A DNA stretch of 64,000 bases from Candidatus Aldehydirespiratoraceae bacterium (GTDB taxonomy: Bacteria; Actinomycetota; Acidimicrobiia; Acidimicrobiales; Aldehydirespiratoraceae). Where the stretch lies: assembly GCA_965204595.1 (NCBI GenBank), contig CBDBEW010000014.1, forward strand, positions 405,034-469,033, in the 5' to 3' direction. This document shows, in pieces, positions 18,513-47,311 of the stretch; the first letter of the stretch is position 1; each line of letters starts with the position of its first letter. The translations under genes were made by a program, and so were the position numbers. The notes under the pieces were generated by a model. It had not been told where the DNA came from. It worked only from the letters and a program-made list of their open reading frames with translations, and did no database searches.

Positions 18513-18515
18513 GCG

Positions 18516-29224: not shown

Positions 29225-29896
29225 TCATAAAGAGTTGCCTAATCGTTGGCCTAACACGCCTGAGATGCCCTGTAATTGCGTTTGCACGCCTTGATTACCG
29301 CAATGTTCGGCGAAGCGCTCCATGACGATCTCTTCAACTTGTTGCCAGTTGTGGGCACGCAGTCCCTGTAGGTGACGGTTGTGGTATTGATCAAAAACGA
29401 TAACTTCGTTGCCCGCAGATCTCAAGGCTTCTATGTTATGCGGTGCGTCATCAATATATAAATTAGCTTCCACTTGTGGTTTGGCACCGAGAAAACAAAG
29501 GTCACGATAGGGGATACGTACCCGATCGAGCCAATCAACGGTGTCACTAGCAGCGATTTGGTGCCCCCAATTCACATAAAGACGATGGGTGATTATGCGT
29601 ATCCAAACCCCGGCATCCGATAGCCGCCACAACGCTTCGGTAGCACCTTCAATCACTTCCATATCTCTGAACATGCGACCTTGCGTGACCGCATACAGAT
29701 GGTGATCTTCAAAAGTTTCTTGACTAAAACCCCATTCCTCAAAGTTCCAACTGCGTTCCAAAGGAAGGGATTCTTCTGCAACGCCAAGCCGCTTGGCAAC
29801 AACGCGGCGAAAACCGAGTGTGTGCTCAGCGCATACCCCATCTAGGTCAACACCGAGGACAAAGGTTTCAGGGTTGGTGGTTTCAGGTGTGGTCAT
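29225..29896 (-). CDS. HAD-superfamily 5'(3')-deoxyribonucleotidase-like protein (NT5C family)
   Basis: VLGVDLDGVCAEH (DxDGV nucleophile motif) and LYIDDAPHNIEAL motif. Confidence 0.6.
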   Translation of the reverse strand: MTTPETTNPETFVLGVDLDGVCAEHTLGFRRVVAKRLGVAEESLPLERSWNFEEWGFSQETFEDHHLYAVTQGRMFRDMEVIEGATEALWRLSDAGVWIRIITHRLYVNWGHQIAASDTVDWLDRVRIPYRDLCFLGAKPQVEANLYIDDAPHNIEALRSAGNEVIVFDQYHNRHLQGLRAHNWQQVEEIVMERFAEHCGNQGVQTQLQGISGVLGQRLGNSL

Positions 29897-30633: not shown

Positions 30634-30685
30634 GCACCTTAACTCAGTGTCACACCCCTTGTGCTATTGTGCAATGCGTTGCCAA
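30634..30685. repeat. left copy of a 52-bp direct repeat flanking the R-M cassette
   Basis: GCACCTTAACTCAGTGTCACACCCCTTGTGCTATTGTGCAATGCGTTGCCAA. Identical at 50 of 52 positions to 32510-32561 by manual alignment. Confidence 0.9.
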
Positions 30686-30714
30686 TGAACGAGCAAAATG
30701 GAGGAGCTGGCGGC

Positions 30715-31653
30715 ATGAGCGAAAGGTTTGACTGCGCTGACTTCTTCTGTGGCATAGGTGGGTTCCACATAGCCGCTGCAAGCCTGGGACATCGTGTCGT
30801 GGTGGCTTGTGATATTGACGAAGAAGCGCGGCGAGCGTATGCCGCCAACTTCGCCATCTTGCCCTATGGAGACATATGCACGTTGAACGAAAAGGAGGTG
30901 CCAGATTTCGACTTGTTGTTCAGCGGATTTCCCTGCCAGCCATTCTCGATCATCGGCAAGCGCAATGGTTTTGCTGACGACAGAGGCACGTTGTTTTTCC
31001 AACTGTCGCGGTTCATCTCTGAGAAAAAACCTATTGGGATCATCTTGGAAAACGTCAAGCAGTTGGCTACGGCTAAGGGCGGAACCTTACTACAGTGTAT
31101 GATTGAGGAACTATCCGATCTTGGATACCACGCTGACTACCGTGTGCTGAACACGCTGGACTTTGAGTTGCCGCAAAACCGCGAACGGGTTTACATAGCC
31201 GCATCTTTGCGGTCGCTTGAATCGTTCAAATGGCCCTCTGATGCCGTGTCTATGACACCGCTATCGGACATCTTGGAGAGCGATCCCGACCCCAAACACT
31301 TCGCGTCCGAAGAGATACGAGCTAAGCGTCACCGAGCGCATACCGCAGAGGCCAGTCCTATGATTTGGCACGAGAACAAGAGCGGTAACATATCTAGCCA
31401 TCCGTGGTCGTGCGCGCTAAGAGCGGGAGCCTCCTACAACTACCTGTTGGTAGACGGCAACCGCCGGCTGACACCGCGTGAAACGCTCAGACTGCACGGG
31501 TTCCCCGATTCATGGAAGATTGTGTGCAGCGACAGTCAAACGAAGAAGCAGACCGGTAACGCCGTGTCTGTGCCGGTCGCAAGGGCCATGATCAAAGCAA
31601 TGGGAGAGTACCTTGGAAGAACCGAGACTGAGACGCGGCAGTTATCAGCATAA
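30715..31653 (+). CDS. DNA (cytosine-5)-methyltransferase
   Basis: Motif I FFCGIGGF, motif IV GFPCQPFS, motif VI ENVKQL, motif VIII QNRERVYI, motif X TGNAVSVPV. Start chosen at the ATG at 30715 with GGAGGA 10 nt upstream. The track start at 30661 lies inside the repeat. Confidence 0.9.
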   Translation: MSERFDCADFFCGIGGFHIAAASLGHRVVVACDIDEEARRAYAANFAILPYGDICTLNEKEVPDFDLLFSGFPCQPFSIIGKRNGFADDRGTLFFQLSRFISEKKPIGIILENVKQLATAKGGTLLQCMIEELSDLGYHADYRVLNTLDFELPQNRERVYIAASLRSLESFKWPSDAVSMTPLSDILESDPDPKHFASEEIRAKRHRAHTAEASPMIWHENKSGNISSHPWSCALRAGASYNYLLVDGNRRLTPRETLRLHGFPDSWKIVCSDSQTKKQTGNAVSVPVARAMIKAMGEYLGRTETETRQLSA

Positions 31654-32352
31654 ACCACGATACCCGCTAGGCGAGATACCAGACGATGTGTTGCGTGCCG
31701 TGGGCAGACTTATGGTCTACCGCGCCGTTGTGGGCATTGGTGATGTAAGTGGAGACGGCTTCGGAGACATATTCGCAGAGGCCGTGGGAGGTACACACTA
31801 CGCTAGTCCTGTTGGCGTGGTGGATGTCGCTTGTGGGGTTACTGGATGGTCAGTGAAAACAGTGAAGAAGCCTGACCCGTTCACCACACGTACCATTAGG
31901 TTGGTATCTGGAAGGAATTCGCCAGACTATTCATACGGAATCTCAGACCCCCGTTACGACATACAGAAAACCGGCAGTGCTGTGTTGACGATATGGAACC
32001 AGCGTATCCAAGATTCGTTGTCGGAGTTTCACGAGCTCCGCACAGCGGGCTCGTTCGCAACTTTGAGGACAGGAAGTTCGTGCTGTTCGAGCACGAAATG
32101 GAACTGTTTCTGCCAGACGACTACTTGTGGACTGTGAATGCCCGCGGCAATTTAGAGGGCACAGAAACGGCAACAAACAGGAGCAGGTTCGTGTGGCAAC
32201 CGCACGGATCGCAGTTCACCATACGGGAGAACGTGCCGGACACGGCTAGGGCGTTTTATGTGGCGCGAACCGTGGAGACATTGGACACAGCCGACCTTCT
32301 CGGCCTTATAGATTACAGCGACGAGTGGATCAAATTGAAGGAGTCTCTGTGA
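31613..32352 (+). pseudogene. type II restriction endonuclease candidate, split by a frameshift near 32035-32060
   Basis: Two overlapping ORFs in different frames (31613-32137 and 31993-32352). The first carries a PD-(D/E)xK-like VVDVACGVTGWSVKTVK and ends in Cys/Ser-rich nonsense. The second becomes protein-like only from ...LVRNFEDRKFVLFEHE. The 5' end overlaps the MTase stop. Confidence 0.55.
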
Positions 32353-32587: not shown

Positions 32588-32950
32588 GTGACCACAAGTC
32601 CATTCGAACGAAACCCTGACCCTTTCGCCGAGGAAGGTTTTAGCTCTTCAACATCCCAAGTTGCCCCACTCAAGCGAGACACTAGCCTCGTGATTTTTAC
32701 CGTGCCGGCGATATTGGCATCGCTGCTCGCTGTTTTATTGTATTGGTGGGGTGTGGTGGGTTATGGTGCCGTGGGTATGGCTGCTTTAGGATACGTGCTA
32801 GCAGTGTTGGCAGACACACAAACGCGTCGCACACGTTACGATCAACGCAACTTCGTGCGCCCTAAACTCACTACTAGTTTGCGGGTCGCAACGTTTCTGA
32901 TGGCATTGTTGATCGGTTGGCTAGTTGCTTCAAATCTGGCAGGCTCGTGA
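32588..32950 (+). CDS. small three-TM membrane protein with an N-terminal SPF/DPF peptide (cassette gene A)
   Basis: AAGGAGG lies 7 nt before the GTG. N-terminus TTSPFERNPDPFAEEGF followed by three hydrophobic helices. The stop overlaps the next start (ATGA). Confidence 0.7.
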   Translation: MTTSPFERNPDPFAEEGFSSSTSQVAPLKRDTSLVIFTVPAILASLLAVLLYWWGVVGYGAVGMAALGYVLAVLADTQTRRTRYDQRNFVRPKLTTSLRVATFLMALLIGWLVASNLAGS

Positions 32951-35772
32951 TGCGCGTAATTTGTTTGCTATTTCTGGCAATTTCTTTGGCAGGTGTGCTG
33001 CTCGCAACCACGTCTCCCGCCACCGCAGAAACAAACGTGCCCGTTACCGACAGGTGCTTTTTATCCGAAAGTCAAAACCAAGTCAATGTTTTGATCTTGA
33101 TGGACGTTTCTGGGAGCTTGGCAAGTAACGATCCTGATGGGGCGCGTCAAAAAGGGTTGGAGAGTGCACTAAATAATCTCGCCCGCTTGGCAAGAACTCA
33201 TGATGACGTTGATATCAAAGTTGCCATAGACACATTCGCAAGACGCTATCGCCAAGTTTTGGGCTGGCTGGATGCGAACGAAGCAGCCGTGGCACTCGCA
33301 GACAACATTCGTGAAATTATTCGATCTGGTGGAAGAACTGACTACCGTGAAGCTCTCAAGGGTGCGGCAGCACGTTTTAGCGAAGAACCAGAAAGCACCT
33401 GCAACCTGCTTATGTGGTTCACAGATGGATCACACGACACGAACAATAGCACGCAGGTTGTAGCCAGTGAGTGGGCTGATTTAACCGAGCTTTGTTCATC
33501 ACAGGAAATGAGCGACCTGTCTAATGTAAGTGTCTGGACAACAAGCGTGCTGCTATCTTCAGACGACCTCAACCAAGCAAGCCTCAACACTACCCGCACC
33601 GAACCCCTCGAATTTGTTTACGGTGAACATCCGCGTAACTGTGAACATCCACTTGACGGTGAGATTCGAGCTGACATCAACAGCGAAGAGTTGCGCAACC
33701 TATTAGGCGAGCTATTAAGCGAGGCTGTCTACCGATCCACCGCTACTAGCGATTTGCCCGGAGACGATGATCTGCTACCAAACGAGGCTGAATTTGAAAA
33801 GTGTCAAGGAGAAGGCACCCAAGATGACCCCTGTCAGTTCAATTTTGGGCTAACCGAAACCCATGAGGGTTTTCGCGTATTTGTTGACATGACGTATTCA
33901 AACAATCAAATTCTTGATCCAAGTGCTATCAACGTTGACTTAATTTCTCCGACCGACCGGACATACTCGGTCTACTCTGCTTCGGGAAGCCAACCAACAA
34001 ATGAGGTCCGCTACCAAGAAATTGGTGATTCTGGATTTCTGTCCTACTTTCCATATGACAGTCGCTGGGAAATTATCGGCCATCAAGTGGCAAGAGATTC
34101 GGCTACTGATTGGGAGTGGGCTGGTGAGTGGACGCTTCACTATTGGGGCGACGATAGCGTCCAAAGCAGAGAAGCCACTAAGGTGGCAAGCGCGCTGCGC
34201 ACGATCACGACACCAAAACCTTCTGTCAATATGCGTGTTACCCCGCAAGACGCTCTATTTGGAGAAATAACCAATTATCCAGAACCTGACCAGATACCAG
34301 AATTGCGCTTGCGAGTAGAAAACGGCCAAGGTGGACCACTCTATACCACACGCACGTTCCCTCTGAGTCCAGTGAGCACCGAAAATCCGCAGTTTAGCGA
34401 ACCAGACATTTATAAAGATTTGCTTTACTGGGATAGTGAAGCTGGGGGTGGTGATGGAACAAGTTTGCTTGAAGCATTCGAGAATCAACCGCCGATCACC
34501 TTGGTTGGGGAGTTGAGTCAGGAATTTCAATATGGCAACAACGACGTGACCTGGACACGTCCATTGGATAGACAACTTGAATTGGAAGGTCTCGCCAACT
34601 TCATTGAAGGCGTTAATGAGCGTGCAGAGTTAGAAGAGTGGCTCAACGACCTAGAGCAAGGTAACGCAGATCAACCTGCGTTGCCAACGGTACAGTTGAC
34701 TAATACACCATATGACATTAATGGCTCTGAGGTGGAATTAGATGTTGATGTGCCTGAGGGACGGTTTCCTGGGGACTTGTCGCTAGTTGATGTTAGAGCA
34801 ACAGAAGGTAACCCAGCGGGTGCGTGGAACTGCTCCACACCGTCGGACACTCCTTGCCCACCAGTCAAAGTAGACTTGGGCTTAAACGAAGACGGCAACG
34901 TGGAGACCACGTTAGTTATAGAAATACGCCCAAATCCCGACCTAGAAAGAACATTACGCAACCGCTATGTGATGTTTAGCAACGACGAATGGGCTGATAT
35001 CTGGAATCGGATTTCCCAAGCCACTCAAGCCACAACACTTACTCTGACCTCTGAACCAATTCAGGTCGACATTGCCACCCCTAGCGACAAGATAAGCAAG
35101 TTCTTACCAATATTGGTGGCTCTCGTTTTGTTGGCGGTTGCGTTGCGCTTTGCGGCGGCTTGGTGGCTAAGGCCCTGGCTGCCCTTGGCAACAGCTCAAT
35201 ATGTTGTGAAACCCCTGCAATCAGCGACTGGACTTGCACCCATGATTTCACAACAGCGAGAGTTGTGTATGGACCTCACCGCGCGATCATCATCTGCCAA
35301 TATTGGCTCGGTGGTGCTCAACTCGAGGTTGTTGCCTCTTTTGATAGGTCGTCCCCCGTTGCTTGAAGCACGATCGTCGCGCGGCAATTGCTTTGGTTCA
35401 AGAGGCAGCTATCACAACAGAAAGGGCGAAAGAGTAGGTCGAGTTGGAAACTCTTTGCACGATGGTTGGGTGGTTGATCTTGCAACAGACACACCCTTGT
35501 TGATTGTGTGGGACTTACCAAGTGATGAAACAGATCAGGCAAATCGCATCTCAGAAGTGACCAGCGAAGCATCAGACAAATTGGAGAAGTTGCATCTTGC
35601 AACGCACAAGCCAGCATCGAATCAAAGTTCCAAGATCCCATCGCCACAAACTGACCCATTTTCAAATCCCGCTCGGGATCCATTTGCTGAACCACGGATT
35701 AGCAATGATCCCTTCGCAGATGAGAGCCGTGATCCGTTCAACGAACCAAGACGCAGCGATCCCTTTACGTAA
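32950..35772 (+). CDS. type-I membrane vWA (MIDAS) protein with a cytoplasmic DPF-repeat tail (cassette gene B, 940 aa)
   Basis: Signal peptide MRVICLLFLAISLAGVLLATTSPATA/ETN. vWA MIDAS motif LILMDVSGS (DVSGS at 33103-33117) plus MWFTDGSHD. Large extracytoplasmic region and a TM segment FLPILVALVLLAVALRFAAAWWL (about 35101-35168). The C-terminal tail ends with five DPF motifs. Confidence 0.8.
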   Translation: MRVICLLFLAISLAGVLLATTSPATAETNVPVTDRCFLSESQNQVNVLILMDVSGSLASNDPDGARQKGLESALNNLARLARTHDDVDIKVAIDTFARRYRQVLGWLDANEAAVALADNIREIIRSGGRTDYREALKGAAARFSEEPESTCNLLMWFTDGSHDTNNSTQVVASEWADLTELCSSQEMSDLSNVSVWTTSVLLSSDDLNQASLNTTRTEPLEFVYGEHPRNCEHPLDGEIRADINSEELRNLLGELLSEAVYRSTATSDLPGDDDLLPNEAEFEKCQGEGTQDDPCQFNFGLTETHEGFRVFVDMTYSNNQILDPSAINVDLISPTDRTYSVYSASGSQPTNEVRYQEIGDSGFLSYFPYDSRWEIIGHQVARDSATDWEWAGEWTLHYWGDDSVQSREATKVASALRTITTPKPSVNMRVTPQDALFGEITNYPEPDQIPELRLRVENGQGGPLYTTRTFPLSPVSTENPQFSEPDIYKDLLYWDSEAGGGDGTSLLEAFENQPPITLVGELSQEFQYGNNDVTWTRPLDRQLELEGLANFIEGVNERAELEEWLNDLEQGNADQPALPTVQLTNTPYDINGSEVELDVDVPEGRFPGDLSLVDVRATEGNPAGAWNCSTPSDTPCPPVKVDLGLNEDGNVETTLVIEIRPNPDLERTLRNRYVMFSNDEWADIWNRISQATQATTLTLTSEPIQVDIATPSDKISKFLPILVALVLLAVALRFAAAWWLRPWLPLATAQYVVKPLQSATGLAPMISQQRELCMDLTARSSSANIGSVVLNSRLLPLLIGRPPLLEARSSRGNCFGSRGSYHNRKGERVGRVGNSLHDGWVVDLATDTPLLIVWDLPSDETDQANRISEVTSEASDKLEKLHLATHKPASNQSSKIPSPQTDPFSNPARDPFAEPRISNDPFADESRDPFNEPRRSDPFT

Positions 35773-35804
35773 TAAACAAGAAATGCTTAGAAAGGATTCA
35801 ACCC

Positions 35805-38800
35805 ATGCTTAGACCAGTAATCTTTATCGGATGTGGCGGCTCTGGAGAAAAAGCTGTTCGCTACGTTCGTGCAGCAGTGCAGCGAACCCTTGACCATTAC
35901 GATTGGCCCCACGGTATGCCAAACCCGTGGCAGTTCATCGGCCTAGATACCCTTACAGTGCAGGAATCACCCACAGAGATCCCAACCATCCCCTCACAAG
36001 ACTTCTTGACGCTGTCCTCAGAACACGACACCTACGCGGCACTGCACCGCTCATTAGAAGCCAATCACAACCAACACCAAGGACACCCAGAATTGTTGTG
36101 CGGCTGGTTGCCCAACCCAGATGGCGTGAGTCTTCCTCTCAAGGATGGAGCTGGCCAGAATCGTGCTATAGGTAGAGCCGCAGGACTAAGATCTCTTGAA
36201 CGCACACTATTATCGCGTCTCAAAGAAGCATTCAGAAGAGCGAGTTCTGGCGGCCAAGAACTTTACGAGGTTGGTCAGGCACTTGGGGTGGATGCTGAAC
36301 TCGGAACCGAAACTCCAGCACCCTTGGTGATGGTTTGTTCATCCATGGCAGGCGGCACGGGAGCCGGTGTTGCACTAGATGTGATCGACCTAGTACGTCG
36401 CTGTGATCCATTGGGTGCCCATCCCTCGCTAGTGCTATTTGCCAATGACATCTTTGATGTGGGGGAGAAGGTTCCGATGGCAGCAAACTCTTTGGGTTTG
36501 ATTTCAGAGCTGATGGCTGCTTATTGGTCTAGGGCAGGTGAAATCGAATCACCACTCACCACTAAAGGAGTGCAAAGCCCAGGTGCGGGGCCTCACTCTG
36601 TTTTTGTGCTAGGCAAGGTGGGTTACAGCGGCGCAGACCTCGGTAACACCAAAGACTTCTATCACGCAGTTGGTGAAGCTCTGTCGGTATGGGTTACATC
36701 AGCAGTTGTACAAGAACAGATTCACAACTTCATCAACGTCAATTGGCGCAACAATGCCAAGATCAACTTTGGTGGTTATCCCTTTGGCAAGGATGCACAG
36801 TTCGGGGCAATCTCTTCTTTCGGAGCAGCAAAAGTGACCGTGGGACGGGATCGCTTTGTGCAATGGGCACAACACAAAATTGGTAGGGAAGTGCTTGACG
36901 CATTGCTCAAAGGCCACCTTAGAGATCAATCGCTTCAGGGAAATCAGCAGACATCGCAAACAACAGATGCAGAACTCATTGCTGAGCTCGGCAAAAAATA
37001 CGCCCCAATGGTGTTTGCGGGTGCCCCACTTTGGGAAGCAGCACCCGAACAACTAGAAGGTTTTCAGGGCGCACAGCTGCGCTTTGCTTCAGATGAAAAG
37101 GTTCGCAACAAGGCGAGAGAGCTAAATAATGACTTGACAGAAACACTGGGTGGACACACCTCCAGCGGTGCTCAATGGGCGAGCGAACTCGAACTGCTCG
37201 CACGCCAACAGGTTTCTGCTATTGACCGTTCAAGCACTGCACCTGAAGATCACCAGTGGCACCAAGACATGGTGGATGCCACCTGTTTATCCGCATCGCA
37301 AGTGGCCGCAGTGTCGTCTCTAGGTGTTGCCTCAGCCGCGCTAAGAGAAGCGGTAAAGCTAAATCAAAGAGAACTAAACGACGTGCGCCGCGCGGCACAA
37401 CTTGCTGAGCACAGATACGGCGAACGTGTTGGCCAGGGCTTGGAGCAAATTCGCAACATCAATGGTCAAGCCGATAACAATCACGGCGAACTCGTGGACG
37501 GTATCAAGAGTGTTGCGCAAGGCGTGGCGTTCCGTTGGCAGTTTCAACGCCTCAACCACGTAGCAAAAGTGCTAGAACACGCCGAACGAGAGGTCTTTGG
37601 GGTTATCGCGGGTGCGCTAGATAGGGTCGTTCCCCAAGTAGGCGAAGCACTCGACAGCGATGAGGTGAATGCTTGGCCCATGCCACACACCCTTGGCGTG
37701 CCCGATCGCTACACCCCTTCAACGGTGGAATTTCCTCTCGAACATCATGACCAGTGGATGGATAATCTCGAGCTGCTCTGCCAGGAGGCTAGGGAAAGTA
37801 GAGTGCCTTATGGGGCCAGAGAAATAGATGCACTTCGTTACCGTCTCATTGCTGGCACCCCCATAGCGAGCAGCAAAGGGCAAATTCCCTCGTTGGTGCA
37901 TCGCTCGCCAACACGTTGGATATTAGGGCAATCTACTAGGGTGATCTGTCAAGCAGGCAAAGCAGATATTGAGGCCCGCGTGCATCAATGGACCAACGCT
38001 CCAGGTAGCAAGTTTAAGCGCTTCTTAGATGAAGGGTTGGCGGCTTATCTCAATGAAAGCGATCCCGATAGTGGTGAACCGCGACTAGACCACACCCAAC
38101 GACTGCAAGAGTTTAGAAGGCAACTTGGCAAAGCTAAAGAAGGTTCCAAACCGCTGGTGTCGGTAGATCAAGACCTCTATGGGGTTTGTCACCCCACGAA
38201 GAGTTTGGAACTACGCACAATTTGCTCACAGTTTCCCTTTCCCGAAGGCCACGCAGCGAGCGAAGATGCCAAGGGCATCGTCGGTGAAGCTGCCTACAGT
38301 ATTAGCAGCACCGACACGACCTCGATTCTGGTTTCGCAATACTTAGGTAATCCTGTTCATCCCATGGTGGTGCGCTCCATCACAGAGCCACTTAATGAAG
38401 CGATCGCAGTAACAGAAGACCCCGTTGAACGCTCGTCGTCATTTTGGATGTGGCGGCGCGCCAGGCGTCTTGATGGCTTTATACCGTTGCCGAGGACGGT
38501 GCTTGAAGCAGTTGTAAGGGGTTTTGCCGTGGCCAGACTTTGTGGCTACATCACCGCAGATGCTAGCAAACCAATGTGCATCAGTGCAGCCCCTGATGAG
38601 GTGGAGTTCCCGTTTCCATGTCTGAGTAGGTTGCGTCATCCCAACGATGTCTTAGCAGGTCTGCTTGAGAGCTTCTCGTTGACATATGGCTTAGTTGGAG
38701 GTGAAGGAATAGCGGCCTTTGAAGGATACAGGCGGCTTCATGGGTTAGGTGAGCCTATCGAACGCAAACAACTACCTAGAGACCTAGAAAATTTGCTCAA

Positions 38801-39083
38801 CACAGGATTACCAACATACGCCGCGGTAGCTGGGGAGGAAGCGAAAGTTATTGGTAGCACTCTCGACGAACGTCAAAGTCGTGCCATGTCCTATTTAGAA
38901 GCAAATGTGCAATGGTTTTGGGATAAGAAAACCAATCGTGGCGAGCGCATCCATCATCGCAATCAAAACGGTCTTGCTGAAGAAGGTGTGCCGACAATGG
39001 AAATGGCCGACGTGTTTGCTCGCTGCTACAGCCAACTCCTTGAACTTCTGGCGGCGAGAGGCTCAAAAGGCAGCGTGGTATGA
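35805..39083 (+). CDS. tubulin/FtsZ-like GTPase, large form (Tubulin_2-type, 1092 aa; cassette gene C)
   Basis: N-terminal VIFIGCGGSGEKAV (T1-like loop, 35829-35846). DGAGQNRAIGRAAG segment. LVMVCSSMAGGTGAGVALDVIDLVR (tubulin signature-like T4 loop, GGTGAG at 36351-36368). ANSLGLISELMAAY segment. About 750 aa of C-terminal sequence is unassigned. Confidence 0.75.
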   Translation: MLRPVIFIGCGGSGEKAVRYVRAAVQRTLDHYDWPHGMPNPWQFIGLDTLTVQESPTEIPTIPSQDFLTLSSEHDTYAALHRSLEANHNQHQGHPELLCGWLPNPDGVSLPLKDGAGQNRAIGRAAGLRSLERTLLSRLKEAFRRASSGGQELYEVGQALGVDAELGTETPAPLVMVCSSMAGGTGAGVALDVIDLVRRCDPLGAHPSLVLFANDIFDVGEKVPMAANSLGLISELMAAYWSRAGEIESPLTTKGVQSPGAGPHSVFVLGKVGYSGADLGNTKDFYHAVGEALSVWVTSAVVQEQIHNFINVNWRNNAKINFGGYPFGKDAQFGAISSFGAAKVTVGRDRFVQWAQHKIGREVLDALLKGHLRDQSLQGNQQTSQTTDAELIAELGKKYAPMVFAGAPLWEAAPEQLEGFQGAQLRFASDEKVRNKARELNNDLTETLGGHTSSGAQWASELELLARQQVSAIDRSSTAPEDHQWHQDMVDATCLSASQVAAVSSLGVASAALREAVKLNQRELNDVRRAAQLAEHRYGERVGQGLEQIRNINGQADNNHGELVDGIKSVAQGVAFRWQFQRLNHVAKVLEHAEREVFGVIAGALDRVVPQVGEALDSDEVNAWPMPHTLGVPDRYTPSTVEFPLEHHDQWMDNLELLCQEARESRVPYGAREIDALRYRLIAGTPIASSKGQIPSLVHRSPTRWILGQSTRVICQAGKADIEARVHQWTNAPGSKFKRFLDEGLAAYLNESDPDSGEPRLDHTQRLQEFRRQLGKAKEGSKPLVSVDQDLYGVCHPTKSLELRTICSQFPFPEGHAASEDAKGIVGEAAYSISSTDTTSILVSQYLGNPVHPMVVRSITEPLNEAIAVTEDPVERSSSFWMWRRARRLDGFIPLPRTVLEAVVRGFAVARLCGYITADASKPMCISAAPDEVEFPFPCLSRLRHPNDVLAGLLESFSLTYGLVGGEGIAAFEGYRRLHGLGEPIERKQLPRDLENLLNTGLPTYAAVAGEEAKVIGSTLDERQSRAMSYLEANVQWFWDKKTNRGERIHHRNQNGLAEEGVPTMEMADVFARCYSQLLELLAARGSKGSVV

Positions 39084-41677
39084 GTTCCGCTGCGCGTTTA
39101 GTGATATTAATGTCGGCTGACCCCGCTGAATTCACTGCGCCCCTCAACGACAACCTCGCTGATTGGTGTGAATCTGGCCTGCTAGGGGAGGTGGTGTGGC
39201 TTTGCGCGCAAGACCTAGCAACTCATCTTCACAATGCAGAGTGTTGGACAAATCACAACCAAACTTGGCAAAAGACAACCCTCGCCGCGGCCATGTCGCA
39301 GCAGTTCTTTGGTGAGGTGTGGTTAGCTGCGCTGAGACACCCTCACGCCACAAACGACCCCACGCTAAAAGAAACTGCTCGCCACACCGAAGAACAAGCC
39401 CACTCAATATTGGGCCAAATGGTTGGCACCGACAGCAATTTTCGATCATTCACCGTCAAAATTGCACGAGAAACGGCCACAAGCACCGCTCAAGACTGTA
39501 CCCCTGCCTGGGACTTCCACCTCATTCATGATGCGATGGTGGCAACGCACTCAAACCTCCCCAAAGTGGGTGCGTCGGCAAGTTCACCACTAAGCCTCTG
39601 CGCGATCGTGGCGCTATGTGCAGCGAGTGGTTGGTACAACGTAGACACATCAATCAATATCGGTTCAGATGTGGCTGATGGCGTGTTCAAACCAGTGCGT
39701 TTTGTGCGCTGTCAGTTGAGAGTTTTACACACGCCGCTGATTTTGGGATTCGCAATACCTTCTGCAACTCCCACGGCACCACCATGGCCACTACCTCAAG
39801 TCGACAATGTGCAAAGAGCACACCCTGATGCAGTGCCTCCGCTATCGCTAGCTACCAACTTAGCGCAGCAAAGTGGACTGGTTTGTCGCCAACCACCAAC
39901 TGTGCCAAAGGCGGGCCGCAAGTATGAGTTTGCAAGATTGTGGAAGAAATTTGCTGGTTCCATACCGGCCATTCCTGCTGTCTCAAAATATGAACAAGCA
40001 CTGCACAGGTTCGCAGATCGCACTGGGGGAACTAGCCAAGAAAGTACAACTAAAGCTGTGCTTCAACTAGTTGACATCAGCGACTTTCCAGACCTAGTGT
40101 TACAGGTGCGACGCAGCGATTTTCCTCCTGTACTCGACCCGTCAAATGCTTTCATAGAAGCTGAGGATTCTTGGAAAAATGTGCGTGACGTAATGTTTGG
40201 CCTTGTTGATGGATCCGAACTAATCGCCAAGGTCAAACATCCAGTAGACGAAACAGTCAAAGACCCACCTCGGCTACTCTGGACCGATCCACGCGGCTTG
40301 GCACCTGAACAATCTCCTCTTGACGCAACTGATGTCTGGCCAGTTTCTAAAACTGATGAAGTTCAAGAAGAGAAACTCGTAGGGGATACGAACAAACGTT
40401 CAACAAAGTTGCAGCACAAAGACACACTAATGGAACGCCTTACAGAAACGCTGCGCCAGGCGATTGCGCAAGCACAGCAAAACTTTATCGATAACTGCGT
40501 CATCGCCTCAGTTGACGATCACTATGATCAAGCTAAGTCCAGCCAAAGAAAAGCTCGGCTTGTGGGTGCGGTTTTGTCGGTAGCGATTTTCATTTCCTTG
40601 CTGCTAATGCTTGATCAACGCATGCCTACCCTTGCTGGTGTTATTGAGGGCATAACCCCGTTTGGTGCTCTACGAAGAGACTGGGGGATTGGTTTCTACA
40701 TCATCATATTGTTAGCACTACTTGGTGGGCTGATCTGGTTTGGCAAGTTGTTTGATCAAATGTTAGAAGCGCGCCACCAACTTGAAGCGATTTACGCACA
40801 ACGCCATCGACTGGGCATTTATAGCTCTCACTATGCAGCAGAGCTTTTGCGACTGTGGGGGGTAGGGCAGCAGTACGCCGATCATCGGCTAATCATCACA
40901 GAATTCTTGCATCGTCCATTCGGCAATCTTGTAGCTAATGACAGAACTACTTTGAATGCCGCAGAGTTGCCATTCCGACAAGACCCCCCAGCGGCGATGC
41001 TGGTGACCCACGCAGATGTGAACCCCAGGAAAATCCCAGACATCCATCGTCACGGTCAAAGAACAGCAGTGGCACCTAAATGGCTCAATGAGGCATATGG
41101 CCGTGTGTACTCTATTTGGAAACAATCGTTCCAAAAGAGAGTGGTTGGAGAGTTTCTAGACCCCGACCACGACATTACCGCGCGCAATACCGTAATTCAC
41201 AAGAATCGTCGTGATGGTAGCGACTTGTTTGGTGCGCGCACAGAATTTTCGACCGCTGTTGTTGGAGCATTCGGACTTGCAGAAACGGGGTGGGCTTTGC
41301 GACAAGCAAGCGATGAGCGCACCATAACCTTGTTAGAACAACATCGTGATAACCCCGAAGAATTTCTAGCAGCATTTGGCAATATTAGAACTGTACATGG
41401 TGCTTATCCAGGCATTAGCGCGGAGGAGTTTTTTAGGTTCTCTCATTCACAACACGACTTGACTTGGCGTTCTCTGCTTGCTGCTAACACTGAAGCACCG
41501 GAGGTAAGAAAATTTACAAGCAAAATCGGCATCGTTCCGACAGTTGCAGACAAGCGATCATTAATTTTGGCTTGGCAAATGGTTATTTCTGATCCAGTAC
41601 GTCCTCAAGACCAAGCGGGTTGGCGAAAAGACACCACAGAACAACACCTACCTACCACACATGAATCGATTGTGTGA
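39080..41677 (+). CDS. large two-TM protein of unknown function (cassette gene D, 865 aa)
   Basis: ATGA overlap with gene C. TM hairpin LVGAVLSVAIFISLLLML and IGFYIIILLALLGGLIWFG (about 40562-40745) lies between two large soluble regions. No motif recognised. Confidence 0.7.
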   Translation: MSSAARLVILMSADPAEFTAPLNDNLADWCESGLLGEVVWLCAQDLATHLHNAECWTNHNQTWQKTTLAAAMSQQFFGEVWLAALRHPHATNDPTLKETARHTEEQAHSILGQMVGTDSNFRSFTVKIARETATSTAQDCTPAWDFHLIHDAMVATHSNLPKVGASASSPLSLCAIVALCAASGWYNVDTSINIGSDVADGVFKPVRFVRCQLRVLHTPLILGFAIPSATPTAPPWPLPQVDNVQRAHPDAVPPLSLATNLAQQSGLVCRQPPTVPKAGRKYEFARLWKKFAGSIPAIPAVSKYEQALHRFADRTGGTSQESTTKAVLQLVDISDFPDLVLQVRRSDFPPVLDPSNAFIEAEDSWKNVRDVMFGLVDGSELIAKVKHPVDETVKDPPRLLWTDPRGLAPEQSPLDATDVWPVSKTDEVQEEKLVGDTNKRSTKLQHKDTLMERLTETLRQAIAQAQQNFIDNCVIASVDDHYDQAKSSQRKARLVGAVLSVAIFISLLLMLDQRMPTLAGVIEGITPFGALRRDWGIGFYIIILLALLGGLIWFGKLFDQMLEARHQLEAIYAQRHRLGIYSSHYAAELLRLWGVGQQYADHRLIITEFLHRPFGNLVANDRTTLNAAELPFRQDPPAAMLVTHADVNPRKIPDIHRHGQRTAVAPKWLNEAYGRVYSIWKQSFQKRVVGEFLDPDHDITARNTVIHKNRRDGSDLFGARTEFSTAVVGAFGLAETGWALRQASDERTITLLEQHRDNPEEFLAAFGNIRTVHGAYPGISAEEFFRFSHSQHDLTWRSLLAANTEAPEVRKFTSKIGIVPTVADKRSLILAWQMVISDPVRPQDQAGWRKDTTEQHLPTTHESIV

Positions 41678-41718
41678 TATTGGTATAGGGGTAGGCACGA
41701 GCTTGACTTGATATCCAA

Positions 41719-41746
41719 ACTTGACATAACATATATTTCAGGCGTT
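41719..41746 (-). other. candidate dif (XerC/XerD) site, overlapping a 9-bp inverted repeat
   Basis: The - strand reads AACGCCTGAAA-TATATG-TTATGTCAAGT. The right arm fits the generic XerD arm TTATGTnAAnT (9/11 to E. coli TTATGTTAAAT). TGACATAAC (41722-41730) and GTTATGTCA (41744-41752) are perfect inverted copies. Confidence 0.4.
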
Positions 41747-41812
41747 ATGTCACCCCAAACGTTTCAAAGCAAATCGTGCTGTGGTGTATGCGCTAGGCGT
41801 TTGGGGGTGCTA

Positions 41813-43096
41813 GTGTTGTTGTTTGTGTCACGGAGATTAGAGATAGAACTAACGTCTGACCGCACCGACGGCCAATGGACTTGGCGCGCTGCTGGTGCCA
41901 AGAAACCCAAAGGTCTAGTTGATGCCAAGTTGCTGCCAGAGAAGGTTCAAGTTGGTGATGTATTACGTGTTGAAGCGAATGCAAGCCTTGATGGATTAGA
42001 GATCATCACCGTGCTGCCGTCTCGTTTATCAAAGCCCAAAGACAAAATATTGCAACTGATCGGCTCAGCTCCAGAAGAGTCATTAGTAATGTCAACGACA
42101 GCAACCAAAACTCGCTCAAAGAACTCGAAAGGTAGTAAGAAAGAGCGATCTGAACGCCCGCAAAACAGCAACGCAGAAGTTGTGCAGAATAAAAAGAAGA
42201 GAAACAAACGCGCCCAAGACGACCGAAGTAAGCAAGTAGACAAACTCAAAAAACGTAACAACAACCAAAAACGCAGATCATCGTTAACGAAAACTTCTAA
42301 AACACGTCGCTTACGCCCCAACAACAAACATCGGCTCGCTGCATTAGAAGCACTGCCCAAAATTCAACAAGAACTCGCTAGTGAGGTGATGAGAAGAGGC
42401 GTTGCTGGCGTGCGTGAAAGCATTGAAAGGATGAATGCTCTCGCCAAAGATGAAGGCATCCCTCAAGTCAAGTCGGAACCCCTTGTTGCCTTAGCCGAGC
42501 AACTGGCACCGATCATGAAGGCCGCAGAATGGCGAGACCGTGCCGAAGCAGTTTACGCCAATCTCGAAACTGTTGATCTAAAAGACTTGCGTACCGTGGT
42601 GGTTGCTGCTGACAGTGCAGCGCGAGACGAAGAATCCAAAGCTCTGGCTAAAAAAATCCAGGAGGGGCTAACAACTCGGGTGGAACGCGAACATCGAGCC
42701 TGGCTCAACGAAATCGTTAATCACCTCACCGATGGGCGTACGGTTCTGGCTTTAACGCGCAGTAGCCGTCCGCCCAAAGCAGGTGCACCATTGCCAATAG
42801 ACGTGTCCGAGCGGTTAACTAAAGCAGCGGTGGCTTCGCTCACTAGCGATACCGCAGCCAAACGCTGGGCCACTGTGTTAGAGGCACTAGCTTATTCGCC
42901 AGTTCGATCCTTAGTTACGCCACAAAGCTGCATCGAAAAACCGAGTGAAGAGTTGCTAGCCACTATCAAAAGGTTGTCGCCCAAGATTCCTCAAATTGCC
43001 TCACTTTTTGGAATTGAAGATAAGAGCAAATCGCTGGCATCTGTAAAAGTCCGGCCTCAGCCCCCACCTCCACCACAACAAACCTCACAAAGCTAG
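41813..43096 (+). CDS. hypothetical protein with a Lys/Arg-rich linker and Pro-rich C-terminus
   Basis: Conserved-looking N-terminal beta-rich segment RLEIELTSDRTDGQWTWRAAGAKKPKG...VGDVLRVEA. K/R-rich stretch (about 42100-42340) and a helical C-terminal domain. Start uncertain: GTG at 41813 or 41825 after GGGGG. The track start at 41708 would run through the dif-like site. Confidence 0.5.
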   Translation: MLLFVSRRLEIELTSDRTDGQWTWRAAGAKKPKGLVDAKLLPEKVQVGDVLRVEANASLDGLEIITVLPSRLSKPKDKILQLIGSAPEESLVMSTTATKTRSKNSKGSKKERSERPQNSNAEVVQNKKKRNKRAQDDRSKQVDKLKKRNNNQKRRSSLTKTSKTRRLRPNNKHRLAALEALPKIQQELASEVMRRGVAGVRESIERMNALAKDEGIPQVKSEPLVALAEQLAPIMKAAEWRDRAEAVYANLETVDLKDLRTVVVAADSAARDEESKALAKKIQEGLTTRVEREHRAWLNEIVNHLTDGRTVLALTRSSRPPKAGAPLPIDVSERLTKAAVASLTSDTAAKRWATVLEALAYSPVRSLVTPQSCIEKPSEELLATIKRLSPKIPQIASLFGIEDKSKSLASVKVRPQPPPPPQQTSQS

Positions 43097-43117
43097 TGGT
43101 GGTGCTCTTTGGCGATC

Positions 43118-43588
43118 TTAATCTTCCCGCAGCGAACGATGCACGCAGATAGCTCTAGCAACTAAACCAAAGGTCTCAAAAAAGTTCTTAGTGGCACGAT
43201 CTCCTGGTAACGCTAGAGAATCAATCCCGACACATTCTTGCTCGCGACACCAATCCTCCACGAAGTTGATCAATGTCTCACCGCAGCCAACCCCACGAGC
43301 TTGGGGTAAAACAAAAATCTCGCTGAGGCGACCAAGTATGTTGGAATCGTGCAGTTTCACCAATTCTACTGAGGCATAACCAACAATCACATCGTCAATT
43401 AAACTCACCGCCAACAAGCCAAAATCGCATGTAGCGCGTAAACTCTCTTCAAACGGTGGAGTGCGAGCTTCTAGCACCGACCAAACCGCACCACCACGAT
43501 GAGGAGTTAGTTCGGCAATAGCAGCGGCACACAAATCGGCGACCACCACTAAATCTGATTCTTGGGCACAACGGGCATCAATTTGCAT
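43118..43588 (-). CDS. GNAT-family acetyltransferase
   Basis: Motif A VLPQARGVGCGETLINFVEDW. Confidence 0.65.
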   Translation of the reverse strand: MQIDARCAQESDLVVVADLCAAAIAELTPHRGGAVWSVLEARTPPFEESLRATCDFGLLAVSLIDDVIVGYASVELVKLHDSNILGRLSEIFVLPQARGVGCGETLINFVEDWCREQECVGIDSLALPGDRATKNFFETFGLVARAICVHRSLRED

Positions 43589-44504: not shown

Positions 44505-46124
44505 TTAACCAAGGTCTCGTTTGTGCCGCTTTTTTGCAGTTAGGTTTTCCGCTGAAAGCCTTCCTAGCGCATCATCTTTGTCGTGGTTCACAAATTTCAT
44601 TGCTTCTGCTAATGCAATATGCCCAGCTTTGTCAGCGATTTGAGTATGCATTGCTTGGCAAACCAAACGATATGCCTCATGCCCTTGTGGTGTGGTGCGC
44701 AACTCAAGCATGTGGAGAGCCTCTCGAGCATTAAATTGCATTGAGTAACGGATACGATACGCCAAAGCTACTGCGTAACTTGCGCTCTCGGGAAACTCCT
44801 GTAATAGTGCGGCATACAGCGACTCTGAGCGCTGCATAGCACTATGGTATGTGTCGGCGTGTCCGGCGGCGGTTATGGTATCAGGGATCACATAACCGTG
44901 TCTAGCTGAAAGCGGCTGCCAATCAATCGTTAGCATGCGATGTCTTTGTAGGTCTCTAAAAGCACCGTAGTCAGACAACACGTCAAAGCGGTAACTTGTG
45001 CGTTCAAAGGCCCTGCCTGGACGGTGCCTACGGTTAGTTCTTTGCCCAACATAAGCTTTGATGACACTAATCCGTTCATCAACAGACATCTGCCGCACCC
45101 GCGCTTCAAGAAGGCGTTCTGAGAGAGAACTATGAGGATACAAACAGCCAATCACAACCTTCAGTTCGCCTTGTGGATCGTATTCAACCAAGTCGACAAT
45201 GGTCTTTTCTACCACTCCCCCAGTTTCATAGCCAAGTAATTCGTCACTTATGGCTTCAGTTGAGAGACGGGTATCACTAAGATAATCCCTCGCACGGTTT
45301 CCTCGCTCAGGTAAATCTACTCGCTTTAAAAATGAGGGGATGACTTTACGCAATTCTGTTAACATCATCTCTGCGTAGGTGCGCGCTTCTGGCAATGGAT
45401 GACTTCTCATTCGTAGCAAAAGTGCTTCGTATGCTTGCCCAGATCCGAAGATGCCCACGTTAGATAATGAAGCCGCGGGCAACAATCCACGAATAGCATC
45501 AAAGGCTTTGGCTTGGACTGCTAATCGATAAGCGAAATCGCTGTCGCCTGGTTTTTTAGGAACCGCTTCTCGAAAATAACTTTGCATCTTGGGGATGAGA
45601 GCAGAATAAATGTCGAAAATGCGATCTAGGTCCGCAACATAGCGAGTACCGAGAGGCGAACTCATCACCTTTGGGTCACGATAATAGCGGTAGCGCCCAC
45701 CAAGTCGTTGGTCATAAGCTATATAGCGAGTACTTTGCTCAAGGTAGGCCATCAAGCGACCCCATTCAAGCACCTTGGTAAGGATGTTGGATGCTTGTTC
45801 ACACGCCAGATGCACACCGCCAAGTTGTGCAACGCTGTCGTCTCCATACTCAAAGAAAACTCGGTCATATAGTTCCTCGGCGCGCTTCAGCCCCACGGTT
45901 GCATCTATGGTTTTGTCGCCTGACACATCTAGATCGCCAACAAATTCCTGCAAAAACAAGCGACGTAAGCTAAGCGGTGAGCGAGAATAACGGGCAAAGA
46001 GTGCGCCTTTTACCACCTCAGGCAGGTTCACCAACGCAAACACTGGTTGATCAAGGTTGGTGAAATAGCGCCGCAGAATGTCGGCTTCGTTAGCGGTGTA
46101 TTCCTCAGCAATATAAACCGTCAT
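44505..46124 (-). CDS. thyX: tandem-domain ThyX-like FAD-dependent thymidylate synthase homologue (539 aa)
   Basis: ThyX-type motif AFRDLQRHRMLT in the C-terminal half. Start set at the ATG at 46124 (MTVYIAEEY), which avoids overlap with the upstream gene. Confidence 0.6.
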   Translation of the reverse strand: MTVYIAEEYTANEADILRRYFTNLDQPVFALVNLPEVVKGALFARYSRSPLSLRRLFLQEFVGDLDVSGDKTIDATVGLKRAEELYDRVFFEYGDDSVAQLGGVHLACEQASNILTKVLEWGRLMAYLEQSTRYIAYDQRLGGRYRYYRDPKVMSSPLGTRYVADLDRIFDIYSALIPKMQSYFREAVPKKPGDSDFAYRLAVQAKAFDAIRGLLPAASLSNVGIFGSGQAYEALLLRMRSHPLPEARTYAEMMLTELRKVIPSFLKRVDLPERGNRARDYLSDTRLSTEAISDELLGYETGGVVEKTIVDLVEYDPQGELKVVIGCLYPHSSLSERLLEARVRQMSVDERISVIKAYVGQRTNRRHRPGRAFERTSYRFDVLSDYGAFRDLQRHRMLTIDWQPLSARHGYVIPDTITAAGHADTYHSAMQRSESLYAALLQEFPESASYAVALAYRIRYSMQFNAREALHMLELRTTPQGHEAYRLVCQAMHTQIADKAGHIALAEAMKFVNHDKDDALGRLSAENLTAKKRHKRDLG

Positions 46125-46135
46125 TGCGCCAGATT

Positions 46136-47311
46136 TTAGTTTCTTGCTGTGAATGAGTCGTGGATGGTAGCCAGTATTTCGGGTTGAGCCCAACAATCAA
46201 CTATAGTCATGGCCATATTTAATGCACCATCCAAGACTGCTTGGTCTGCGGCTTCAGAACGCGCCGCCACCGCAAATTCTGGTGTGTGAATAACTGTACC
46301 TTGCGGTGCTAACTTGATCATCGGGTGAATAGCTGGCACTTGTTGACTGACATTGCCCATGTCCGTGCTTCCAACAACCACCCTTGACTCATCTTGAGGG
46401 TGCACCACTCTGCCATTTGCTTCAGAGTTCTTAGTGTAAAGTTCAAGCAACACGTCATTGCTCAGCATGTGATGGTAGGGCGGGTCGTGCCAAACAGTTT
46501 GCATCTCACAACCCGCTGCGGTCGCTCCAGCTGCTAGGCAGGCATTAAAACGCTCCTTAAGGCAGGCTAAACTCTCAGTTGTTGTTGAGCGGACATACCA
46601 TTGCGAAGCAGCTTGACTTGGCACAATGTTGGGTTTATCTCCAGCTTGTGTGAAGATTCCATGAATTCGTTCGTCTGTCGCAATGTGTTGACGTAAGGCA
46701 GCAACAGCGTTATAGCCGAGAACGGCAGCATCTAAGGCATTACGACCTTCTTGAGGGTTTGCAGCGGCGTGGCTAGCTACTCCCCGATAAGTGATATCCA
46801 CTGATTCGCAAGCTAATACATGCATTGTTTCTATGTCGTGGTCGGCTGGATGAACCATCATCGCGCCCTCAACACCTCTAAAGGCACCTCGGCGAATCAT
46901 GAACTCCTTGCCGCCCCCTCCTTCTTCTGCTGGAGTACCGAGCACCACCACTTGCCCAGCCATAGCTTGCGCAACTTTAGCGGCTGCCAAACCAGCACCA
47001 AGCCCAGCAGCAGCAATCACATTGTGACCACAGGCATGGCCGATGGCAGGCAACGCATCATACTCACAACAAACAGCCAATGTGGGGCCAACGTTGCCTG
47101 CTCTAGCAGCGAACGCTGTTGGCAATCCATAAGCACCGCGTTCCACTTCAAGTCCCTGCTCTGCAAGTGTGTCGGTGAGTAGTTCATGGGCGTGATGTTC
47201 CTCAAATCCGAGTTCGGGATTGGCATGGATTGAATGAGAAATTTCAATGAGTTTGGAACTCAAGCGAGAAACTTCAGCGCGTACCAGCCGTTTGGCTAGA
47301 AAGACATCCAT
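46136..47311 (-). CDS. M20D-family amidohydrolase
   Basis: NPELGFEEH, HACGHNV and GTPAEEGGGGK motifs. Confidence 0.8.
   Translation of the reverse strand: MDVFLAKRLVRAEVSRLSSKLIEISHSIHANPELGFEEHHAHELLTDTLAEQGLEVERGAYGLPTAFAARAGNVGPTLAVCCEYDALPAIGHACGHNVIAAAGLGAGLAAAKVAQAMAGQVVVLGTPAEEGGGGKEFMIRRGAFRGVEGAMMVHPADHDIETMHVLACESVDITYRGVASHAAANPQEGRNALDAAVLGYNAVAALRQHIATDERIHGIFTQAGDKPNIVPSQAASQWYVRSTTTESLACLKERFNACLAAGATAAGCEMQTVWHDPPYHHMLSNDVLLELYTKNSEANGRVVHPQDESRVVVGSTDMGNVSQQVPAIHPMIKLAPQGTVIHTPEFAVAARSEAADQAVLDGALNMAMTIVDCWAQPEILATIHDSFTARN

Follow-up and report, generated by a model that had tools for sequence, protein, structure and literature searches.

Within a 64,000-nucleotide stretch of DNA (the window) from Candidatus Aldehydirespiratoraceae bacterium, an actinobacterium of the class Acidimicrobiia (contig CBDBEW010000014.1, positions 405,034 to 469,033), four co-directional open reading frames (ORFs), here called A to D, occupy positions 32588-41677 of the + strand, just where an earlier note made from the sequence alone had placed them. 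The identification of this cassette as the four-gene core, B2-vWA-FtsZl1-B3, of the FtsZl1-vWA system, in a chromosomal and vertically inherited form without the accessory GTPase module, is well supported by the evidence presented here. The earlier note took the module to be uncharacterized; in fact, the FtsZl1/vWA operon had already been described and proposed to function in remodeling membranes and forming vesicles (Makarova and Koonin, 2010; Biol Direct 5:33, PMC2875224), and its theme reappears in a study of conflict systems (Kaur et al., 2020; PMC7159879). To the described system we add a conserved DPF motif in the tails of its membrane proteins, which probably links these proteins to the cytoplasmic GTPase.

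The four proteins and the FtsZl1-vWA core

In the supplements of Makarova and Koonin (PMC2875224), the actinobacterial B2 is a small membrane protein of 175-204 amino acids (aa), the vWA protein has about 890-918 aa, FtsZl1 has 1118-1197 aa, and B3 is a large membrane-associated protein of 866-933 aa; in Xylanimonas, the B2 slot is an unlabelled 84-aa ORF and the B3 slot an unlabelled 1027-aa protein. The A-B-C-D series of the window fits B2-vWA-FtsZl1-B3 in both order and size (Table 1). Further likenesses to the published operon are a vWA protein with a signal peptide and an intact metal-ion-dependent adhesion site (MIDAS), and an FtsZl1 protein composed of a head, a coiled-coil or helical region and a C-terminal domain. 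Corynebacterium, Rhodococcus and Mycobacterium have additional B4, B5 and B6 genes along with a diverged GTPase, whereas Xylanimonas has only the four-gene form (PMC2875224 supplements), and it is this bare form that it shares with the window. In Corynebacterium glutamicum, the orthologous operon is cgR_2625-2628. The window differs from the operons of the 2010 set, in which the Acidimicrobiia were not represented, in lacking B4-B6 and the Zn-ribbon GTPase; many of its relatives instead add genes for a lipoprotein-like protein, a protein with a single transmembrane (TM) segment and a DPF-TM-HExxH protein.

Scanning one genome per species, we recovered 78 related loci, 46 of them of the Acidimicrobiia type. 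The copy on a Rhodococcus megaplasmid (L079) is an eight-gene operon that includes a Zn-ribbon P-loop GTPase. When the Rhodococcus B4, B5, B6 and GTPase proteins were used in tblastn searches, neither the window nor loci L001-L046 gave a match, and among the loci examined in this way the Zn-ribbon GTPase surfaced only in those of Streptomyces, Kitasatospora and Oscillospiraceae. As counterparts of B4, B5, B6 and the GTPase are all missing from the Acidimicrobiia loci, we regard the form found in this lineage as one without the GTPase.

The tubulin-like component is C, which the earlier note had likened to the Tubulin_2 family. It indeed matches PF13809 over positions 1-355 of the 356-position profile (E 1.2e-33; 117.3 bits, with a cut-off of 27), and the two motifs on which the comparison had drawn, IGCGGSG (residues 8-14) and SSMAGGTGAGV (179-189), are in place. 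Its loops comprise T1 (GCGGSG, 9-14), a T3-like loop (GAGQNRAIGR, 115-124), T4 (GGTGAG, 183-188) and a T7-like loop (INVNW, 310-314). Across a broad alignment of 23 sequences, which takes in Rhodococcus, Streptomyces, Chloroflexota and one Firmicute, G9, G11, G12, G14, G183, G184, G186 and A187 are invariant. A broader profile of the head retrieved TubZ and FtsZ from the sequences in the PDB, with the alignments meeting at T1, T3 and T4. An AlphaFold2 (AF2) model built with 22 homologues as input (predicted local distance difference test score, pLDDT, 86.9; predicted TM-score, pTM, 0.76) was compared with the PDB by Foldseek, which returned CetZ1 as the best match (E 9.8e-5) along with gamma-tubulin, FtsZ and Odin tubulin; the alignments cover about 360-390 columns with a probability of 1.0, and the TM-scores are modest (0.31-0.47 per target). 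Model and fold comparison thus agree on a tubulin/FtsZ fold for the N-terminal domain.

Beyond this head, the model of C has a stalk with long helices at residues 506-550 and 561-617, followed by a structured domain up to residue 1087 that carries an invariant patch of basic and aromatic residues, FWMWRRARR (880-888). Outside the tubulin domain, neither the sequence profile nor Foldseek gave a significant match in the PDB, and a full-length profile of C run against the PDB sequences picked up only coiled-coil noise (keratin, 507-592). With identities of 33-100%, the homologues of C are about 1070-1130 aa long, with a few at 876-990 aa; all except one 876-aa protein contain PF13809, and those with a source name come mostly from Acidimicrobiia, including the sponge-associated Candidatus Poriferisodalis and Poriferisocius (among the 120 matches listed).

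Protein D displays the TM hairpin expected of it (494-511 and 536-555 by hydropathy), which lies between a cytoplasmic alpha/beta N-terminal region (1-490) and a long conserved juxtamembrane helix (561-615) that leads into a cytoplasmic C-terminal region. Searches of Pfam, NCBIfam, PADLOC and, with a full-length profile, the PDB found no relatives of D. Its predicted structure is of moderate quality (pLDDT 66.7), and because a Foldseek search with it produced no significant match (best E 0.12), D is for now a fold orphan. Its affinity emerged from profile comparisons: hhalign aligned the D profile with Rhodococcus B3 over 741 columns (E 3.4e-5, probability 72%), and an exhaustive search with the D profile assembled 184 clusters, mostly of 850-1050 aa and with a central TM hairpin or segment in most full-length members; BLAST with Rhodococcus B3 reaches many of these clusters as well, at E values as low as 4e-23. 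On the basis of this alignment and of the 184-cluster family that BLAST ties to Rhodococcus B3, we assign D to the B3 family; the hairpins of the two proteins occupy a similar, roughly central place.

The remaining two proteins largely bear out what the earlier note had read from their sequences. A has three TM segments by hydropathy (about 34-54, 55-75 and 97-117), preceded by a short, acidic, cytoplasmic N-terminus that includes SPF (residues 4-6) and DPF (11-13). It resembles a 148-aa Rhodococcus protein, its putative counterpart, in position, size, the three TM segments and an N-terminal DPF; the two have no similarity in BLAST. B begins with a hydrophobic signal sequence (residues 1-26), continues with a vWA domain (Pfam VWA_2, 1.9e-8) in which the MIDAS is complete (D52-x-S54-x-S56, T130 and D159), and crosses the membrane once at 718-740. 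For the stretch that follows, the claim of five DPF motifs at its very end stands, and the length of the cytoplasmic tail needs adjusting from 180 to about 200 aa. The closest solved structure by sequence is the secreted vWA protein 9no5_A, in an alignment that spans the MIDAS; the roughly 550 aa of ectodomain beyond the vWA domain have no family match. The cytoplasmic domain of B holds a conserved WDLP motif (854-857), and the end of the tail is acidic.

Table 1. Genes, domains and motif clusters of the cassette, in window coordinates
Feature	Position	Strand	Description
Gene A (putatively B2-type)	32588..32950	+	120 aa, GTG start; recognized from the ORF, hydropathy and homologues upstream of B in relatives
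Gene B	32950..35772	+	940 aa from ATG; type I membrane protein, vWA/MIDAS
Five DPF motifs, end of B cytoplasmic tail	35653..35766	+	aa 902-939; proposed docking peptides
Gene C	35805-39083	+	1092 aa, tubulin/FtsZ-like
C head, tubulin/FtsZ-like GTPase domain	35805..36914	+	aa 1-370
C non-tubulin part	36915..39083	+	helical stalk, aa about 371-640; alpha/beta C-domain, aa 641-1092
Gene D (B3-type)	39080..41677	+	865 aa; TM hairpin

The genes are tightly packed, and their overlapping junctions bear out the translational coupling that had been supposed. The start of D overlaps the stop of C in an ATGA, as the earlier note had it; at the A/B junction, for which it gave the same arrangement, there is actually a 1-nucleotide TGATG overlap (A stop at 32948-32950, B ATG at 32950-32952), a small correction. 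Upstream of its ATG, the frame of B stays open as far back as a TTG at 32917. Between B and C lie the 32 nucleotides reported, which include the Shine-Dalgarno-like AGAAAGGA. The GC content of 0.48-0.55 across the cassette is that of the remainder of the window. Promoter and terminator scans gave nothing above shuffled sequences; at most, they hint weakly that the next gene, E, has a promoter of its own in front of it, at 41703-41737.

A fixed chromosomal site

A check of gene neighborhoods, which the earlier note had proposed, showed B, C and D to be collinear in essentially every related locus with enough flanking sequence. In 45 of the 46 Acidimicrobiia-type loci, C is preceded by B, and D lies downstream of C wherever the contig continues, the exceptions being three loci of a divergent second type with 26-27% identity to C. 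The flanks are likewise syntenic: beside the cassette, relatives have counterparts of the window genes at 24558-26428 and of the NT5C gene (29225-29896), with 75-85% identity. In the closest relative (L080; C 68% identical), the order is thioesterase, A, B, C, D, E-like, GNAT and, further on, ThyX, TatC and TatA. This is the order of the window, minus a methyltransferase that in the window intervenes between the thioesterase and A. Given that the thioesterase of L080 is followed directly by A, the methyltransferase is an insertion specific to the window, and the syntenic flanks together with the L080 order mark the cassette as an old resident of the site and the methyltransferase as a recent arrival.

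Conservation is unevenly spread over the cassette. Its most conserved part is the head of C, at 73-87% identity to relatives, with the stalk of C at 41-44% and the ectodomain of B at 38-41%. Two segments stand out above their surroundings, viz., the TM helix of B (59-62%) and the juxtamembrane helix of D (58-69%).

These observations bear on the earlier suggestion that the cassette sits in a defense island behind a mobile restriction-modification cassette. At E values up to 1, no PADLOC-DB 2.0 family matches any of the four proteins or the product of the next gene, and an NCBIfam search of the same five proteins was of no use. A phage collection contained no relative of C, and plasmid matches were confined to two Rhodococcus megaplasmids. 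E. coli genomes gave no DNA match. With a syntenic site, a methylase peculiar to the window and no signal from PADLOC, phages or mobile elements, the defense-island reading is unsupported.

The only recognizable part of the upstream block is a dcm-type C5 cytosine methyltransferase (30661-31653; TIGR00675, 1.9e-75). Behind it come two ORFs (31613-32137 and 31993-32352) whose frames differ and overlap and which have no family match, a pair that may represent a frameshifted partner gene, such as that of a restriction enzyme; the block as a whole (30661-32352) is not found in L080.

On the other side of the cassette, gene E (41708-43096) encodes a protein of up to 462 aa with a Lys-rich middle, a conserved N-terminal RRLEIELTS..DG.WTWRAAGAK and no family match; a sigma-70-like site with 10 of 12 matches lies at 41708-41737. 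We considered E as a fifth member of the cassette and rejected it: though syntenic, it is several genes away from D in relatives, and it has no DPF. At about 41700-43200 the cumulative GC skew peaks, and the genes, which run on the + strand up to 43096, are on the - strand from 43118, a pattern that would be expected at a replication terminus; a search with a dif-like pattern found no match. Further along, 44505-46196 (- strand) encodes a 563-aa protein with a ThyX (Thy1) domain in two stretches, the best at residues 381-523, whose L080 counterpart has 539 aa. Ordinary ThyX proteins are far shorter.

In many relatives, further genes lie beyond the 3' end of the cassette. Directly after D, the L016 locus (16035-19071) has three extra + strand genes, as do L003, L004, L005, L008, L009, L014 and L038; the first specifies a lipoprotein-like protein of about 229 aa, the second a protein of about 247 aa whose N-terminus has a TM segment, and the third a protein of 520-580 aa, here called F, in which cytoplasmic DPF repeats are followed by one TM segment, a Pro/Thr-rich linker and an extracytoplasmic zinc-protease-like domain with HELGH. 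None of the three belongs to a Pfam family, and none is found in the window. A second, divergent type of FtsZl1 locus (26-27% identity to C) was seen in L043 (6295-13363), L042, L044 and L046. L043 has two tubulin-like genes in tandem, and in both L043 and L046 the D slot is filled by two genes of about 450 aa. As L043 comes from the same genome as L005, some genomes carry two systems.

The acidic D-P-F/W peptides of the membrane proteins

The tripeptide DPF occurs only 9 times in the approximately 19,600 aa of ORFs in the window, and six of the nine copies are in A and B. The bias extends to the homologues: of 44 B homologues, 39 have [DN]P[FLW] among their last 15 residues, as against 5 of 498 control ORFs, and [DNS]P[FLW] precedes the first TM segment in 26 of 36 A-like proteins, typically in the form M-S-x-DPWG-S-D-x-DPF. 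F of the relatives, with two to four N-terminal copies ahead of its single TM helix and HELGH-bearing extracytoplasmic domain, is a third carrier. The motif persists in Rhodococcus, although identity in C drops to 24% there: its B2 protein begins with MTSPSDPFASDPFAA and its vWA protein terminates in SDPFDPFRGGSNR. In every case the motif is on the predicted cytoplasmic side. Four Streptomyces-type vWA tails that we inspected have no DPF; each places an aromatic or hydrophobic residue beside acidic ones or proline (DDYL, HPDL, SPYL and DDEFDEAT). The main text of Makarova and Koonin (2010; PMC2875224) mentions neither 'DPF' nor the T7-like Asn discussed below.

Two further features of protein ends may be recorded here. 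The last gene of the eight-gene Rhodococcus operon (L079, 25734-26336) encodes a 200-aa multi-TM protein that starts with MNQPDDPW and also has an NPF, one more membrane protein with a DPF/W tag beside the system. Separately, C ends in S-V-V (39072-39080) and D in S-I-V (41666-41674), and most homologues of both terminate in x-V-V, x-I-V or x-L-V; these tripeptides may constitute a second shared end motif, formally resembling class I PDZ ligands.

A bolder generalization, which we offer tentatively, is that the acidic D-P-F/W peptide could be a bacterial cytoplasmic docking or sorting signal borne by otherwise unrelated membrane proteins and captured by a machine made of C and D. The proteins so marked might then be the three-TM protein, the vWA/MIDAS protein, the HExxH protease-like protein and the Rhodococcus multi-TM protein. 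If true, this would represent a prokaryotic counterpart of the coupling of integrin tails to the cytoskeleton, or of sorting by adaptors that recognize DPF/W, and would provide the first mechanistic handle on the FtsZl1 family.

A proposed tethered GTPase scaffold and its alternatives

Taking these strands together, we lean, by a small measure, towards a reading in which the cassette specifies a GTP-regulated scaffold beneath the membrane that is tethered to surface proteins through their DPF tails. C would be the GTP-binding component in the cytoplasm, built from a tubulin-like head, a helical stalk and a conserved C-terminal domain, and D, translationally coupled to it, would anchor the assembly in the membrane by its hairpin. 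The disordered, acidic cytoplasmic ends of A and B, and of F in relatives, would present D-P-F/W peptides for docking on C or D, at a conserved surface on the cytoplasmic side, a candidate for which is the FWMWRRARR patch in the C-terminal domain of C. Such docking would couple B's extracytoplasmic MIDAS domain, with its potential for metal-ion ligand binding, to a nucleotide-regulated scaffold, and GTP-dependent self-assembly of C could then cluster or position the surface proteins or reshape the membrane locally. Signals might pass in both directions, in formal likeness to the coupling between integrin tails and the cytoskeleton. What the data show is the order of the genes, their domains, the fold, the conservation of the motif and the synteny; that the proteins form a complex, that DPF docks, that GTP drives assembly and what the cell gains from it are inferred. 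This mechanism would retain the proposal of Makarova and Koonin and add to it a specific connector.

Several considerations weigh against this scaffold. As the earlier note had assumed, no experimental study of any member of the family was returned by our literature searches, and those directed at orthologues in model organisms and at a link to defense yielded no experimental papers either. (A paper on haloarchaeal differentiation and one on a jumbo phage were set aside, the vWA/tubulin systems that they mention being unrelated; another study employs Tubulin_2 proteins only as an outgroup (Santana-Molina et al., 2023; PMC9871819).) The fuller actinobacterial operons have been read as conflict systems (Kaur et al., 2020; PMC7159879). 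The part given to D is a guess, its model being only moderate and its fold unmatched. C, for its part, has no Pfam match to FtsZ_C or Tubulin_C and no canonical C-terminal domain of this kind. Moreover, a permissive local hhalign alignment with an E. coli FtsZ sequence, itself weak (E 0.007), sets FINVNW (309-314) opposite the T7 motif LMNVDF, with Asn313 at the position of the catalytic Asp; Asn313 is at least 90% conserved in the family-wide alignment. From this alignment, the catalytic Asp appears to be replaced by Asn in the T7-like loop of C, which we treat as a lead and not a result. In view of the missing C-terminal activation domain and this apparent Asn, the filament dynamics of FtsZ may not apply to C.

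The foremost alternative, which we consider unlikely, is a role in conflict or defense: the vWA domain of B would sense an invader or a perturbation of the envelope and trigger NTP-dependent assembly of the tubulin-like protein, whereupon D or the assembly itself would damage or seal the membrane, as happens in abortive infection or exclusion. It draws on the classification of the pairing of an actinobacterial tubulin with a membrane vWA protein as a theme of the GTPase-centric GAP1-N2 conflict systems (Kaur, Burroughs, Iyer and Aravind, 2020; eLife 9:e52696, PMC7159879). The cassette is indeed like those systems in having a tubulin with a C-terminal helical domain and a membrane-bound vWA protein, whose extracellular part is beta-rich in the published cases. 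The same study reports that VMAP ternary systems and the tubulin theme are mutually exclusive. The ectodomain of B evolves faster than the tubulin domain, a cytosine methyltransferase lies just upstream in the window, and some genomes have a second, divergent copy, with tandem tubulin-like paralogues in L043, all of which speaks in its favor. However, the core GTPase with its two Zn ribbons, GAP1 and the FNIII-repeat/HRDC protein of the published systems are missing from the window and, within 10 kb, from all 46 Acidimicrobiia-type loci; tblastn found no GAP1-N2 core gene anywhere in the 64 kb, and Pfam scans of the cassette and its neighbors detected no fn3 or GTPase families. The four proteins have no PADLOC match and no recognizable toxic effector domain, the methylase is absent from the closest relative, and copies are lacking in phages and restricted on plasmids to the two Rhodococcus megaplasmids. 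The context, unlike an island, is chromosomal and syntenic, and the cassette has been retained in a contig of only 2.06 Mb. With neither GTPase, GAP1 and effector genes nor a defense match or sign of mobility, and with the locus fixed and syntenic, the conflict reading loses its main supports here. The cytoskeletal, adhesion or envelope-remodeling role that the earlier note had offered as an equal alternative fits the evidence better than defense does.

A machine for cargo-selective vesicle formation or surface export strikes us as distinctly improbable. Here, DPF would sort membrane proteins such as the vWA adhesin and F into a patch that C and D bud or extrude. The idea continues the original proposal of membrane remodeling and vesicle biogenesis (PMC2875224), and would account for one motif on three unrelated membrane proteins encoded beside C and D; also, the GTPase head and long stalk of C and the hairpin of D are formally dynamin-like, though Foldseek matches to dynamin and Mx are far below significance. 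Against it, the argument is one of architecture, the structure comparisons having brought up nothing significant among dynamins, ESCRT or other remodeling proteins, and as the window has no F, the cargo there would shrink to A and B. Finally, that C is an FtsZ paralogue forming cytomotive filaments at the septum or poles for division or shape, with A, B and D as anchors, is very doubtful despite its tubulin/FtsZ fold, conserved T1, T3 and T4 and very highly conserved GTPase domain, because C has no activation domain (FtsZ_C or Tubulin_C) and the family, which is patchy, co-exists with ordinary FtsZ (PMC2875224, PMC9871819), to which may be added the nearly invariant Asn313 and a neighborhood without division genes.

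The system matters beyond this one locus. FtsZl1 has diverged further than any other branch of the tubulin/FtsZ superfamily and is widespread, its hosts including Corynebacterium, Mycobacterium, Rhodococcus, Streptomyces, cyanobacteria, Planctomycetes and archaea, and sixteen years after its description the literature searched contains no experimental work on it. The window provides, in a new class, the Acidimicrobiia, the minimal, GTPase-less four-gene form of this computationally described system. That a small-genome, marine-type actinobacterial lineage keeps it at one fixed place in the chromosome speaks for a basic role in cell biology and against the dispensable function of an island. The DPF/W tails, the FWMWRRARR patch and the apparent T7-like Asn could serve as handles for deciding between membrane remodeling and a conflict system.

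Two other known arrangements invite comparison. The first is FtsZ with its membrane tethers. FtsA, ZipA and SepF bind the C-terminal peptide of FtsZ, which lies at the end of a disordered linker. Both cases feature a tubulin-fold GTPase at the membrane and a short conserved peptide as the likely attachment device, but the polarity is reversed, with the peptide borne by the membrane proteins of the cassette and not by the tubulin-like C. Moreover, C lacks the C-terminal domain and appears to lack the acidic T7 residues of FtsZ, and has about 720 additional residues. The second comparison is with integrins and with a bacterial vWA adhesin. In Myxococcus, the vWA adhesin CglB is said to act at bacterial focal adhesions, as Islam et al. 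reportedly found in 2023. With CglB and with integrins, homology is limited to the vWA fold, the partners in the cassette being a tubulin-like GTPase and an orphan membrane protein. The likeness to the linkage of integrin and talin/kindlin to the cytoskeleton is one of analogy only, comprising an extracellular vWA/MIDAS domain, a single TM segment, a short proline-aromatic tail and an adjacent cytoskeletal element.

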